From assembly GCF_056746865.1 (NCBI RefSeq), contig NZ_CM163382.1: a stretch of DNA of 64,000 nt; one strand, given 5' to 3'. The stretch's first letter is position 1. Every line of letters begins with the position of its first letter. Position numbers and translations under genes: made by a program. Of this stretch, positions 1,884-38,241 are shown piece after piece. Below the pieces are notes generated by a model that was not told where the DNA came from, searched no databases, and saw only the letters and a list, made by a program, of their open reading frames with translations.

Positions 1884-2804
1884 TTACAAATGTGTTTTAT
1901 AAAAAGGAATTAATTTATCGAGTGCCTGTTTCACAGGTTCTGGCTTATCATACAGGTCGTAATGTGAATAACCTTCAACCACGACCAGCTCTTTATGTTT
2001 TGAGGCAGCGCGGCCAATAATTTCGCAGCCGTCACGGTAGGCACCAAATGCGCCCACTCTATCGCCCACCACAACCATTATTGGTTGAGTTAACAGGACT
2101 TCTGCAAGATGAAATGCATCCCAACCCACGGCAACAGTCTGATGTGAGAATAGCGAACGATTTACCCCATTAGGTGCACAGCCTCGTGGCGAACGATAAT
2201 ATTCTGTGGCTTCAAAAAGGTCTATTTCTGTTAATCCCGCTTCAAGAGCTGCATCCGGAGAAGAGGGGAGTAAATCATCTACGCGAAGTTTTGCGCCGTT
2301 AGCTTCGTCTGTTCTTTGTTGCGCCATTGCTTCGAGTGCTCCGATAGGATTAAACGCTGTAAATCCCTCACGCATAAGACGCCCGTAGTTTGCACCCGTG
2401 ACAGTACCAATAGCTTTAATTCGACGTTCTGTCATTGCGGCATTAATGGCATATCCACCTCCACCACAAATACCCAGTACACCAATACGCCCGGCATCAA
2501 CGTAAGGTAAGGTGGTAAGGTAATCAACGACAATGCTGAAGTCTTTTACTCGCATTGTTGGATCTTCCAGATAACGCGGTTCTCCACCGCTGCTTCCCTG
2601 AAAACTGGCATCAAAAGCAATGACGATAAAGCCAGCTTTTGCCAGGGCGGCACCATACACACTACCCGATGTTTGTTCTTTGCAGCTTCCAATTGGATGG
2701 GCGCTGATAATGGCAGGATACTTTTTTTCACTATTAAAATCGTCAGGGAAATAGATATCAGCAGCTATATCCCAGTAAGTATGTTTTATCGAAACAGTTT
2801 TCAT
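1884..2804 (-). CDS. alpha/beta hydrolase, dienelactone-hydrolase-like (306 aa)
   Basis: ORF with nucleophile-elbow-like GICGGGGYA and C-terminal His region typical of alpha/beta-fold hydrolases. Confidence 0.6.
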   Translation of the reverse strand: MKTVSIKHTYWDIAADIYFPDDFNSEKKYPAIISAHPIGSCKEQTSGSVYGAALAKAGFIVIAFDASFQGSSGGEPRYLEDPTMRVKDFSIVVDYLTTLPYVDAGRIGVLGICGGGGYAINAAMTERRIKAIGTVTGANYGRLMREGFTAFNPIGALEAMAQQRTDEANGAKLRVDDLLPSSPDAALEAGLTEIDLFEATEYYRSPRGCAPNGVNRSLFSHQTVAVGWDAFHLAEVLLTQPIMVVVGDRVGAFGAYRDGCEIIGRAASKHKELVVVEGYSHYDLYDKPEPVKQALDKLIPFYKTHL

Positions 2805-34240: not shown

Positions 34241-35777
34241 AATAGTCATTAAACCGAATACCTATTTTGATTCTGTCTCGCTGATGTCTATCTCCACGCG
34301 TGCAAATAAACTCGACGGCGTCGAGCAGGCATTTGTGGCGATGGCGACCGAAATGAACAAAGGCGTGCTGAAGAATTTAGGACTGCTGACGCCGGAGCTG
34401 GAGCAGGCGAAAAACGGCGACCTGATGATTGTCATCAATGGTAAATCGGGTGTGGACAACGAGCAGTTGCTGGCGGAGATTGAAGAACTGTTCAACACCA
34501 AAGCGCAAAGTGGCTCGCACGAGGCGCGTTACGCCACTATTGCCAGCGCCAAAAAGCATATCCCGGAAAGTAACCTGGCGGTGATTTCGGTCAACGGTCT
34601 GTTTGCCGCTCGCGAAGCGCGTCAGGCGCTGCAAAACGATCTTAACGTGATGCTGTTTTCCGATAACGTCTCAGTTGAAGATGAACTGGCGCTCAAACAG
34701 TTGGCCCACGAAAAAGGGCTGCTGATGATGGGGCCAGACTGCGGTACGGCGATTATCAACGGCGCGGCGCTCTGCTTTGGTAACGCCGTGCGTCGCGGCA
34801 ACATCGGCATTGTTGGCGCATCCGGCACCGGTAGCCAGGAACTGAGCGTCCGTATCCATGAATTTGGCGGCGGCGTTTCGCAACTGATCGGCACCGGCGG
34901 GCGCGACCTGAGCGAGAAAATCGGCGGCCTGATGATGCTCGACGCCATCGGGATGCTGGAAAACGATCCGCAAACTGAAATCATTGTGCTTATCTCCAAA
35001 CCGCCTGCGCCTGCGGTGGCCCGCAAAGTGCTGGAACGCGCGCGCGCCTGCCGCAAGCCAGTGGTGGTTTGCTTCCTCGGTCGTGGCGAAACGCCGGTGG
35101 ATGAGCAGGGGCTACAGTTTGCCCGCGGCAGTAAAGAGGCGGCGCTGAAAGCGGTAATGCTCTCCGGCGTGAAACAGGAACATCTCGACCTGCATACCCT
35201 GAACCAGCCATTGATTGCTGACGTGCGCGCTCGCCTGCAACCGCAACAGAAATACATTCGTGGCCTGTTCTGCGGCGGCACGCTGTGCGACGAAACGATG
35301 TTCGCGGTGATGGAAAAACACGGCGATGTCTACAGCAACATTCAGCCCGATCCGGAATTCCGCCTGCAAGATATCAGCCGCAGCATCAAACACACCTTCC
35401 TCGACTTTGGTGATGACGACTTCACCAACGGCAAGCCGCATCCAATGATTGACCCGACCAACCGCATCAGTCGCTTGATCGAAGAAGCGCGCGATCCAGA
35501 AGTGGCGGTGATCGTGATGGATTTTGTGCTCGGATTTGGATCGCATGAAGATCCGGTCGGCTCCACCATCGAGGCGATCAAAGAAGCGAAAGCGATCGCC
35601 GCTGCCGAAGGACGTGAGTTGATCATTCTCGCCTATGTGCTGGGTACCGATCTTGATACGCCATCATTAGAACAACAAAGCCAGATGCTGCTTGATGCCG
35701 GAGTGATTCTGGCCAGCAGTAGCACCAATACCGGATTGCTGGCGCGTGAATTTATCTGCAAAGGGGAGGAAGCCTGA
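34230..35777 (+). CDS. yahF: FdrA-like protein with CoA-binding/succinyl-CoA-synthetase-like fold, 515 aa
   Basis: Gly-rich Rossmann-like motifs (IGIVGASGTGSQE, LFCGGTLCDE); stop overlaps the yahG start (TGATG). Confidence 0.7.
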   Translation: MSVKIVIKPNTYFDSVSLMSISTRANKLDGVEQAFVAMATEMNKGVLKNLGLLTPELEQAKNGDLMIVINGKSGVDNEQLLAEIEELFNTKAQSGSHEARYATIASAKKHIPESNLAVISVNGLFAAREARQALQNDLNVMLFSDNVSVEDELALKQLAHEKGLLMMGPDCGTAIINGAALCFGNAVRRGNIGIVGASGTGSQELSVRIHEFGGGVSQLIGTGGRDLSEKIGGLMMLDAIGMLENDPQTEIIVLISKPPAPAVARKVLERARACRKPVVVCFLGRGETPVDEQGLQFARGSKEAALKAVMLSGVKQEHLDLHTLNQPLIADVRARLQPQQKYIRGLFCGGTLCDETMFAVMEKHGDVYSNIQPDPEFRLQDISRSIKHTFLDFGDDDFTNGKPHPMIDPTNRISRLIEEARDPEVAVIVMDFVLGFGSHEDPVGSTIEAIKEAKAIAAAEGRELIILAYVLGTDLDTPSLEQQSQMLLDAGVILASSSTNTGLLAREFICKGEEA

Positions 35778-37195
35778 TGAGCCAGTCACTGTTTAGCCAA
35801 CCGTTGAACGTTATTAACGTCGGTATCGCCATGTTTAGCGATGATCTGAAAAAACAGCATGTAGAAGTGACCCAACTCGACTGGACGCCGCCGGGGCAGG
35901 GCAATATGCAGGTGGTGCAGGCGCTGGATAACATTGCCGATTCGCCGCTGGCAGACAAAATCGCCGCCGCTAACCAGCAGGCGCTGGAGCGCATTATCCA
36001 GTCGCATCCGGTGCTGATTGGTTTTGATCAGGCGATTAACGTGGTGCCGGGCATGACGCCGAAAACCATTCTTCACGCCGGGCCGCCGATCACCTGGGAA
36101 AAAATGTGCGGCGCGATGAAAGGCGCGGTCACCGGGGCGCTGGTGTTCGAAGGGCTGGCGAAAGATCTCGACGAGGCGGCTGAACTGGCGGCCTCCGGGG
36201 AGATCTCCTTCTCGCCGTGCCACGAACATGACTGCGTGGGATCGATGGCGGGTGTTACCTCGGCCTCGATGTTTATGCACATCGTAAAAAACAAAACCTA
36301 CGGCAACATCGCTTACACCAATATGAGCGAGCAGATGGCGAAGATTTTGCGTATGGGCGCTAACGACCAGAGCGTGATTGACCGCCTCAACTGGATGCGC
36401 GATGTGCAGGGGCCAATGCTGCGCGACGCGATGAAAATTATCGGCGAGATCGATCTGCGCTTAATGCTGGCGCAAGCGCTGCATATGGGCGATGAATGCC
36501 ATAACCGCAATAACGCCGGGACGACGCTGCTGATTCAGGCGCTGACGCCGGGGATTATTCAGGCGGGTTATTCCGTCGAGCAACAGCGCGAAGTGTTTGA
36601 GTTTGTCGCCAGCAGCGACTACTTCTCCGGCCCGACGTGGATGGCGATGTGTAAAGCGGCGATGGATGCGGCGCACGGCATCGAATACAGCACCGTGGTG
36701 ACCACCATGGCGCGTAACGGCGTCGAGTTCGGCCTGCGGGTCAGCGGCCTGCCGGGGCAATGGTTTACCGGTCCGGCGCAGCAGGTCATCGGCCCGATGT
36801 TTGCCGGTTATAAGCCGGAAGATTCGGGGCTGGATATCGGCGACAGCGCCATCACCGAAACCTACGGCATTGGCGGATTTGCTATGGCGACCGCGCCCGC
36901 GATCGTCGCGCTGGTGGGTGGCACGGTGGAAGAGGCTATCGATTTCTCCCGTCAGATGCGTGAAATCACCCTTGGCGAAAACCCCAACGTCACCATTCCG
37001 CTGCTCGGTTTTATGGGCGTGCCATCGGCAATCGACATCACCCGCGTGGGTAGCAGTGGCATTCTGCCGGTGATCAACACCGCCATCGCTCATAAAGATG
37101 CGGGCATCGGCATGATTGGCGCGGGCATTGTGCATCCACCATTCGCCTGCTTCGAGAAAGCCATTCTTGGCTGGTGCGAACGTTACGGCGTTTGA
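35777..37195 (+). CDS. yahG: DUF1116-family protein (YlbF-like), 472 aa
   Basis: ORF translationally coupled to yahF; family assignment from memory. Confidence 0.65.
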   Translation: MSQSLFSQPLNVINVGIAMFSDDLKKQHVEVTQLDWTPPGQGNMQVVQALDNIADSPLADKIAAANQQALERIIQSHPVLIGFDQAINVVPGMTPKTILHAGPPITWEKMCGAMKGAVTGALVFEGLAKDLDEAAELAASGEISFSPCHEHDCVGSMAGVTSASMFMHIVKNKTYGNIAYTNMSEQMAKILRMGANDQSVIDRLNWMRDVQGPMLRDAMKIIGEIDLRLMLAQALHMGDECHNRNNAGTTLLIQALTPGIIQAGYSVEQQREVFEFVASSDYFSGPTWMAMCKAAMDAAHGIEYSTVVTTMARNGVEFGLRVSGLPGQWFTGPAQQVIGPMFAGYKPEDSGLDIGDSAITETYGIGGFAMATAPAIVALVGGTVEEAIDFSRQMREITLGENPNVTIPLLGFMGVPSAIDITRVGSSGILPVINTAIAHKDAGIGMIGAGIVHPPFACFEKAILGWCERYGV

Positions 37196-37290
37196 CTCTC
37201 CAACCGCACCTTACGATCCCTTCTCCCTTCAGGGGAGAGGGGCAACCTCACTCTCATAACCCCATCACCCTCTGTAGCGGACATAACAAC

Positions 37291-38241
37291 ATGAAAGAAC
37301 TTGTGGTCGTTGCCATTGGTGGCAACAGCATTATCAAAGATAACGCCAGCCAGTCGATTGAGCATCAGGCGGAGGCGGTGAAAGCCGTCGCTGATACGGT
37401 GCTGGAAATGCTGGCTTCCGATTACGACATTGTGCTGACCCACGGCAACGGGCCGCAGGTCGGGCTGGATTTACGCCGCGCGGAGATAGCCCACGAGCGC
37501 GAAGGGCTGCCCTTAACGCCGCTGGCGAACTGTGTGGCGGATACGCAAGGCGGCATTGGCTATCTGATCCAACAGGCGCTGAATAACCGACTGGCGCGTC
37601 ACGGTGAGAAAAAAGCCGTCACCGTGGTGACTCAGGTGGAAGTGGATAAAAACGATCCGGGGTTTGCCCATCCCACCAAGCCCATCGGCGCATTCTTTAG
37701 TGAAAGCCAGCGTGACGAATTACAAAAGGCAAACCCTGACTGGCGTTTTGTTGAAGATGCCGGACGGGGCTATCGCCGCGTGGTCGCCTCGCCGGAACCG
37801 AAACGTATTGTCGAAGCACCGGCCATTAAGGCGCTGATCCAACAAGGCTTTGTGGTGATTGGCGCGGGCGGCGGCGGAATCCCGGTGGTGTGCAGTGAAG
37901 CGGGGGATTACCAAAGCGTGGACGCGGTTATCGACAAAGATCTCTCTACCGCGCTATTGGCCCGTGAAATTCACGCTGACATTCTGGTGATCACCACTGG
38001 CGTCGAAAAAGTGTGTATTCACTTTGGCAAACCGCAGCAGCAGGCGCTGGATCGCGTAGATATTGCCACCATGAACCGCTATATGCAGGAAGGGCATTTT
38101 CCGCCTGGCAGCATGTTGCCAAAAATCATCGCCAGCCTGACGTTCCTGGAACAGGGCGGCAAAGAAGTGATTATCACCACGCCGGAATGCCTGCCTGCGG
38201 CGCTGCGCGGTGAAACGGGCACCCATATTATTAAAACGTAA
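37291..38241 (+). CDS. yahI: carbamate kinase-like protein, 316 aa
   Basis: Amino-acid-kinase fold motifs (VVVAIGGNSI, LTHGNGPQVG, GAGGGGIPVV); track ORF 37174..38241 trimmed to MKELVVV. Confidence 0.8.
   Translation: MKELVVVAIGGNSIIKDNASQSIEHQAEAVKAVADTVLEMLASDYDIVLTHGNGPQVGLDLRRAEIAHEREGLPLTPLANCVADTQGGIGYLIQQALNNRLARHGEKKAVTVVTQVEVDKNDPGFAHPTKPIGAFFSESQRDELQKANPDWRFVEDAGRGYRRVVASPEPKRIVEAPAIKALIQQGFVVIGAGGGGIPVVCSEAGDYQSVDAVIDKDLSTALLAREIHADILVITTGVEKVCIHFGKPQQQALDRVDIATMNRYMQEGHFPPGSMLPKIIASLTFLEQGGKEVIITTPECLPAALRGETGTHIIKT

Follow-up and report, generated by a model that had tools for sequence, protein, structure and literature searches.

This analysis revealed that the strong hairpin between yahG and yahI is probably a decayed, hairpin-only relic of the BoxC repeat family, also called PIT or TMECO, lying in a slot that is prone to sequence turnover, and not a dedicated regulatory switch. 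The window that was analysed comprises 64,000 nucleotides of contig NZ_CM163382.1 (assembly GCF_056746865.1). Given that the slot holds what appears to be a worn BoxC copy where other strains carry REP sequences, we read the hairpin as an ordinary repeat relic rather than as a regulator specific to this locus.

The first-pass annotation had described a structured 95-bp spacer at 37196-37290 within a tightly coupled gene series, and both parts of this description hold. There is an 11-nt overlap between yahE and yahF and a 1-nt overlap between yahF and yahG, and 9 nt separate yahI from yahJ; according to the ORF list, the yahG-yahI spacer is the sole sizeable gap in the yahEFG-yahIJ series. An inverted repeat was also found as described, except that its left arm, given as CTCTCCC, actually reads TTCTCCC. 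The base at 37221 is a T and therefore pairs as G·U in RNA. RNA folding extends the stem beyond the initial description, to 11 bp including two G·U pairs (37218-37228 with 37232-37242), closed by a UCA loop at 37229-37231. The stem begins 22 nt past the yahG stop codon.

The hairpin is real and statistically striking, and lies far from chance expectation. The inverted-repeat pattern did not occur once in 100 shuffles of the 64-kb window. With a folding energy of -19.0 kcal/mol in the sense orientation, the hairpin is the most stable of about 128,000 25-nt segments obtained by folding both strands of the window. The antisense fold is weaker (-14.2 kcal/mol), because the sense G·U pairs turn into C·A mismatches. 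For the entire 95-bp spacer, the folding z-score against shuffles was -2.1.

Features of the yahG-yahI region in the window and of comparison loci (given by their L handles)
Feature	Location	Strand	Basis or remark
yahG (DUF1116 / YlbE family), upstream gene	35777..37195	+	TGA stop at 37193-37195; ORF list and RefSeq annotation of strain 118UI (identical over the 496 bp compared)
Strain-variable 58-nt segment ("hairpin allele")	37196..37253	+	Single copy in 654/5426 genomes; most E. coli carry 1-5 REP-pair (BIME) units instead
AACCGCACC-TTACGAT, putative decayed counterpart of BoxC tail and third block	37202..37217	+	Alignment with Kluyvera and Klebsiella spallanzanii spacers
Hairpin CCCTTCTCCCT-TCA-GGGGAGAGGGG, putative counterpart of BoxC/TMECO blocks 1 and 2	37218..37242	+	Folding, rarity scan, two-block pattern match
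Right flank of hairpin allele, CAACCTCACTC	37243..37253	+	Spacer sequences; copy CCTTACTC beside BIME in E. whittamii
Conserved CA-rich, G-poor yahI leader TCATAACCCCATCACCCTCTGTAGCGGACATAACAAC	37254..37290	+	Genome matches, cross-genus alignment
yahI (carbamate kinase family), downstream gene	37291..38241	+	ATG at 37291; ORF list and RefSeq annotation
BoxC-before-yahI loci	L041, L042, L047, L049, L052, L056, L061, L063, L066 and others, at about 2430-2500		
Membrane-protein gene between yahG and yahI, examples	L045:951-2504 (Enterobacter sichuanensis), L024:926-2476, 54 other loci		

To our knowledge, no function at the RNA level has been demonstrated for BoxC/PIT elements, which were treated by Bachellier et al. 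in the 1990s and by Hoyne et al. in 2000. In E. coli, BoxC measures 56 bp and 32 copies have been listed (PMC2267715). The element was later named PIT and then TMECO; Holder et al. (2015; PMC4666352) give the consensus as 5'-CCCTCNCCC-N3-6-GGGNGAGGG-N3-GGGNGAGGG-3' and list 23 copies in MG1655 (K-12). One of the listed K-12 copies reads CCCTCTCCCTTCCAGGGAGAGGG... (PMC4666352), and the stretch CCCTTCTCCCTTCAGGGGAGAGGG of the window is nearly identical to it.

Membership in the family was judged by explicit pattern matching; MAFFT, applied to the 34-37-nt Table 1 sequences, placed gaps on the 5' side and not in the loop. The window hairpin, written as CCCTTCTCCC-TTCA-GGGGAGAGGGG, fits the two-block part of the TMECO pattern if one inserted T is allowed. 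This T lies in block 1 (37218-37227), where the window otherwise follows the consensus CCCTCNCCC. Block 2 was found as GGGAGAGGG at 37233-37241, in agreement with GGGNGAGGG, and it pairs with block 1 across a loop of 3-5 nt. The minus strand gives an exact block 1 (CCCTCTCCC), but its block 2 then has one mismatch. The third block, expected either as GGGNGAGGG 3 nt after block 2 or as CCCTCNCCC 3 nt before block 1, is absent at the hairpin, whose surroundings at these places read CAACCTCACTC on the 3' side and CCGCACCTTACGAT on the 5' side. A strict three-block TMECO had no match in the whole window; at the locus, the closest fuzzy match required 4 substitutions and 1 deletion.

When E. coli genomes were searched by BLAST (E<=10) with the 61-nt hairpin segment, only the segment itself was matched. 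The family link was drawn from other genera and from the literature. The element of Kluyvera intermedia, taken from a spacer with two intact copies, matched 5418 of 5426 E. coli genomes, at a median of 19 places per genome; BoxC is a multi-copy family with about 20 members per E. coli genome, and the hairpin copy is likewise intergenic.

Support for a descent from BoxC comes from the same slot in other genera, for which yahI loci were fetched from 80 species and the yahG-yahI spacers were extracted. Intact BoxC elements of the form ...CCCTCACCCC-NN-CCCTCTCCC-loop-GGGAGAGGG... occupy the spacer, in one or two copies, in Kluyvera genomosp. 1, K. intermedia, K. cryocrescens and Klebsiella spallanzanii. 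In the Kluyvera species and in Klebsiella spallanzanii, the copy proximal to yahI is spaced from the conserved yahI leader exactly like the hairpin of E. coli, and its flanks can be aligned, so that the hairpin and the intact element are positionally homologous. At the site of the third block, E. coli CCGCACC-TTACGAT aligns with Kluyvera CAGCGCACC-A-CCCCTCACCCC-GA.

The resemblance to BoxC/PIT/TMECO comprises the CCCTCTCCC-loop-GGGAGAGGG core, the strictly intergenic position, the GC-rich imperfect palindrome, the strain-variable locus and the presence of intact family members at the same site in other genera. The copy in the window differs in that the third GGGNGAGGG block, which confers the potential for an intrastrand triplex, is unrecognisable, in the extra T of block 1, and in having no BLAST link to the other copies in the genome. 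The proposed derivation draws on 23 nt of similarity together with positional homology, and it is possible that the hairpin is a palindrome of independent origin. TMECO loci are described as unusually variable between strains, with copies that are frequently mutated or deleted, and what remains after a partial deletion tends to resemble a hairpin (PMC4666352). A hairpin-only relic between yahG and yahI corresponds to this very outcome.

We thus regard the hairpin as a previously uncatalogued copy of BoxC/PIT/TMECO. It falls outside the 23 listed K-12 copies because the K-12 site holds a BIME. Judged from its sequence, the relic derives from the family and lacks the triplex feature that defines it; as the third block is missing, the relic is unlikely to form an intrastrand purine triplex as single-stranded DNA.

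Separately from the E. coli spacer, an intact BoxC (CCCTCTCCCTGTGGGAGAGGGCCGGGGTGAGGGCACCAGAACGCACC) was observed directly before yahI, after a membrane-protein gene, in many Enterobacter, Leclercia and Huaxiibacter genomes. As many genomes of the Enterobacter group have one there, BoxC upstream of yahI is recurrent across genera.

With regard to variation within E. coli, the full spacer was present in 654 of 5426 complete genomes (~12%), and the first 58-61 nt, including the hairpin, occurred as a single copy in these same genomes. The last 38 nt of the spacer alone (query positions 59-96) were matched in ~4400 genomes, and the leader was matched in ~5000 overall. The hairpin is therefore not a conserved feature of the yah operon. 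K-12, O157 and B2 strains, as well as most others, carry 1-5 REP-pair (BIME) units at the slot: a 421-bp insert of four tandem units in K-12, about five units in O157, and a single unit in strains M3 and SaT040, whose spacers measure 142 and 152 bp, respectively. For a 496-bp query, the records spanned 496, 543, 553, 646, 730, 822, 833 and 915 bp. The other Escherichia and Pseudocitrobacter species sampled all had BIME alleles (3/3). The alleles of K-12, M3, SaT040, E. albertii and E. whittamii contain the REP consensus; the spacer in the window has no consensus palindrome of the GCCGGATG..N..CATCCGGC type in alternating orientation.

Remnants of common flanks are shared by the different alleles. 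On the left, CCTGCAAA is common to them; the BIME alleles of B2 strains and E. albertii start with CCTGCAAAG, and the hairpin haplotype AR_0013 starts with CCTGCAAAC. On the right, E. whittamii has CCTTACTC-TCATAA beside its BIME, compared with CCTCACTC-TCATAA in the hairpin allele (CCTYACTC-TCATAA). From this pattern we infer that a hairpin-type sequence gave way to a BIME early in the history of the genus; the flank remnants are our only basis for taking the hairpin allele to be the older state.

The hairpin allele itself occurs as four haplotypes, with sense folds ranging from -16.1 to -19.0 kcal/mol and one antisense fold of -7.4 kcal/mol. Two of the three stem substitutions among them keep the pairing of the sense RNA (G·U to A-U and C-G to U·G), and the third breaks the terminal pair only. 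This is a weak hint of constraint at the RNA level, given that four haplotypes and three stem changes, all but one of them transitions, are far too small a sample.

Three further observations were made on these alleles. First, the annotated K-12 gene yahH (YahH, 106 aa; L001:1142-1462, strain J53) lies wholly inside the array of four REP-pair units, and its ORF is missing or of another length in other strains, which makes it most likely a spurious ORF. Second, part of the spacer of E. albertii NBRC 107761 (L012:2186-2500) is duplicated in tandem. The duplication takes in the final ~45 nt of yahG with the stop codon, together with the left flank and a REP pair, which suggests that BIME arrays at this site grow by duplication of REP and flank together. 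Third, NZ_CP132021.1 (L009), a circular 40.5-kb 'plasmid' of E. coli JCH8249, joins Mu-like phage genes (Mor, gp16, Gp27 family) to yahG, and also carries the spacer of the hairpin allele and the initial ~30 codons of yahI. The record has the appearance of a transposable prophage that was inserted in yahI and assembled or excised with host flanks.

The variability of the slot could also point to a role at the DNA level, in which a non-B-DNA structure (cruciform or partial triplex) would promote replication slippage or recombination and would explain the turnover of alleles without any part in gene expression. TMECO loci have indeed been linked to raised local variability and small deletions (PMC4666352), the slot is hypervariable, and the duplication in E. 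albertii extends into the 3' end of yahG. However, the third block required for an intrastrand triplex is gone, a stable triplex in vivo is unsupported even for intact TMECO (PMC4666352), and REP/BIME dynamics account for much of the turnover. We consider such a role improbable.

The first-pass annotation had further proposed that the hairpin might be an attenuator, or an RNase processing site, separating the expression of yahEFG from that of yahIJ. A Rho-independent attenuator or terminator would be in keeping with a strong GC-rich stem-loop in an untranslated gap downstream of a gene, and an analogous hairpin in a Citrobacter MAG is followed by TTTCTTTCTC. The stem in the window, however, is followed by CAACCTCACTC, without a U/T run, and a terminator scan of the + strand from 36500 to 38000 returned no site. 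The scan did not call the Citrobacter hairpins in the equivalent gap as terminators either, and for this reason we do not claim the slot as a terminator in any genus. Folding and the leader alignment gave no evident alternative antiterminator pairing for the hairpin; the yahI leader is CA-rich and essentially unstructured, so that no partner for an attenuator is seen in it. In addition, PIT/BoxC elements are reported to have neither promoter nor terminator activity and to leave RNA polymerase unaffected (PMC4666352). The attenuator proposal was consequently abandoned as very unlikely, and we give it almost no credence.

Other elements were also sought in this region. No sigma-70-like promoter was predicted in the yahG-yahI spacer by a promoter scan, and Rfam cmscan of 36900-37600 (E<=10) returned only two chance matches, both outside the spacer. 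A hidden small ORF after the hairpin was considered and rejected: the 3' arm resembles a Shine-Dalgarno sequence, but no start codon follows within 5-12 nt.

The second part of the proposal, an RNase processing site, is plausible, as is an RNase barrier, only by analogy with REP stabilisers. As the hairpin lies inside the co-oriented yahDEFG-yahIJ series, its sense strand should be transcribed as part of one yah operon and should fold in the mRNA as an 11-bp stem-loop. The relic would thus be co-transcribed with the yah genes, and its RNA would form a stable stem-loop without terminating transcription. If this stem-loop is effective at all, its effect would most likely be passive, impeding 3'→5' exonucleases as a REP stabiliser does, and such a barrier would benefit the upstream portion of the transcript, yahEFG, more than yahIJ. 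Our literature search on yahG, yahI and yahJ found no functional or transcript studies; the roles of REPs in the stabilisation of mRNA have been summarised (PMC3333891).

Like REP/BIME sequences, of which the malE-malF REP stabiliser is an example, the hairpin is a stable extragenic palindrome in an operon gap after a stop codon. It occupies the same slot as the REP pairs of most E. coli, and its expected effect on RNA, a barrier to 3'→5' exonucleases, is the same. It differs in the lack of the REP consensus (GCCGGATG...CATCCGGC) and of Y/Z pairs, and in having no known association with RAYT/TnpA-REP. A further difference is the distance from the yahG stop codon, which is 22 nt for the hairpin stem and 13 nt for the first REP of K-12. 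REPs located within ~15 nt of a stop codon are said to reduce the translation of the upstream gene through ribosome stalling, a finding reportedly made by Liang, Rudd and Deutscher in 2015. Because of this limit of ~15 nt, the effect could apply to the K-12 allele and not to the hairpin described here.

The occupation of the slot in other lineages raises the question of whether any hairpin would serve. In 56 of the 80 Enterobacterales species, a gene for a multi-pass membrane protein of ~510-517 aa lies between yahG and yahI; among the carriers are the Citrobacter freundii group, Enterobacter, Leclercia, Buttiauxella and Providencia. From Providencia to Enterobacter, the protein sequences share 83-100% identity, and searches of Pfam and NCBIfam gave no match. 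It is probably a transporter of the uncharacterised yah catabolic cluster. The gene is absent from the whole window, from Escherichia, Pseudocitrobacter, Kluyvera and Raoultella, and from C. amalonaticus. The E. coli spacer thus corresponds to the position that this gene holds elsewhere, which plausibly explains why a series of otherwise coupled genes has an untranslated gap.

A GC-rich hairpin, with folding energies of -16 to -32 kcal/mol, is present in all of the 21 other spacers examined in which yahG directly neighbours yahI, so that each species without the membrane-protein gene has some palindrome of this kind. These hairpins represent at least four sequence types that are unrelated to each other: BoxC, E. 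coli-type REP/BIME, Klebsiella/Kluyvera-type REP pairs, and the hairpins of Raoultella and Citrobacter. Such a pattern could reflect selection for any stable RNA stem-loop in the slot, the different lineages having recruited whichever palindromes were available; in that case the hairpin would have a function, as a decay barrier or processing signal by which the yahEFG:yahIJ ratio is set. The stem substitutions described above, which mostly preserve the fold of the sense RNA, are in line with this explanation. Nevertheless, REP and BoxC sequences have settled in many intergenic gaps of enterobacteria with no known selection for them, repeats would accumulate anyway in a permissive gap where a gene is absent, and the range of 1-5 REP pairs within E. 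coli looks neutral. We therefore regard a functional signal of this kind as rather unlikely. The wider proposition that selection has kept the slot filled by convergent recruitment of a BoxC relic, 1-5 REP pairs, other REP types and plain GC-rich hairpins appears somewhat less likely still. If it were true, the E. coli alleles would set differing yahEFG:yahIJ expression ratios, and in the BIME alleles a REP would, in addition, follow the yahG stop codon within ~13 nt, compared with 22 nt for this hairpin.

The most constant part of the spacer is the 37-nt leader (…ATCACCCTCTGTAGCGGA…) directly upstream of yahI. It is common to all E. coli alleles, although the sequence upstream of it varies, and it is conserved across Escherichia, Kluyvera, Raoultella, Klebsiella and C. 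amalonaticus; the other genera that share it have no intervening membrane-protein gene. Its only Shine-Dalgarno-like element is a weak GGA. The leader may serve as a standby or translation-initiation region for yahI. An RNA motif in the leader was considered and ruled out, since the consensus fold obtained with RNAalifold from the cross-genus alignment amounts to -0.99 kcal/mol and shows no covariation.

The composition of the spacer suggests a further, speculative explanation in which the hairpin is incidental. The untranslated, C-rich and G-poor spacer could act as a Rho loading (rut-like) region that imposes polarity on yahIJ whenever the hand-over of translation from yahG to yahI fails. 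The spacer contains 38 C, 23 A, 19 T and 15 G, with only 4 G in its last 48 nt, and its leader is unstructured. On the other hand, 95 nt, of which ~50 nt are unstructured, is short for a rut site, and a CA-rich leader is equally typical of regions in which translation initiates efficiently. The chance that Rho loading is the correct explanation seems slight.

We accordingly retain the reading of the hairpin as a BoxC relic. As the probable fossil of a known interspersed repeat, and not a dedicated switch, it carries little weight for the biology of the operon. Its value is modest and lies in providing a clean natural case of repeat turnover at a single intercistronic site, where strains and genera differ in what occupies one stretch of a few dozen bases: a BoxC relic, BIME arrays of 1-5 units or a missing gene. 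These alleles constitute ready natural swaps for studying how palindromes tune relative expression within operons.
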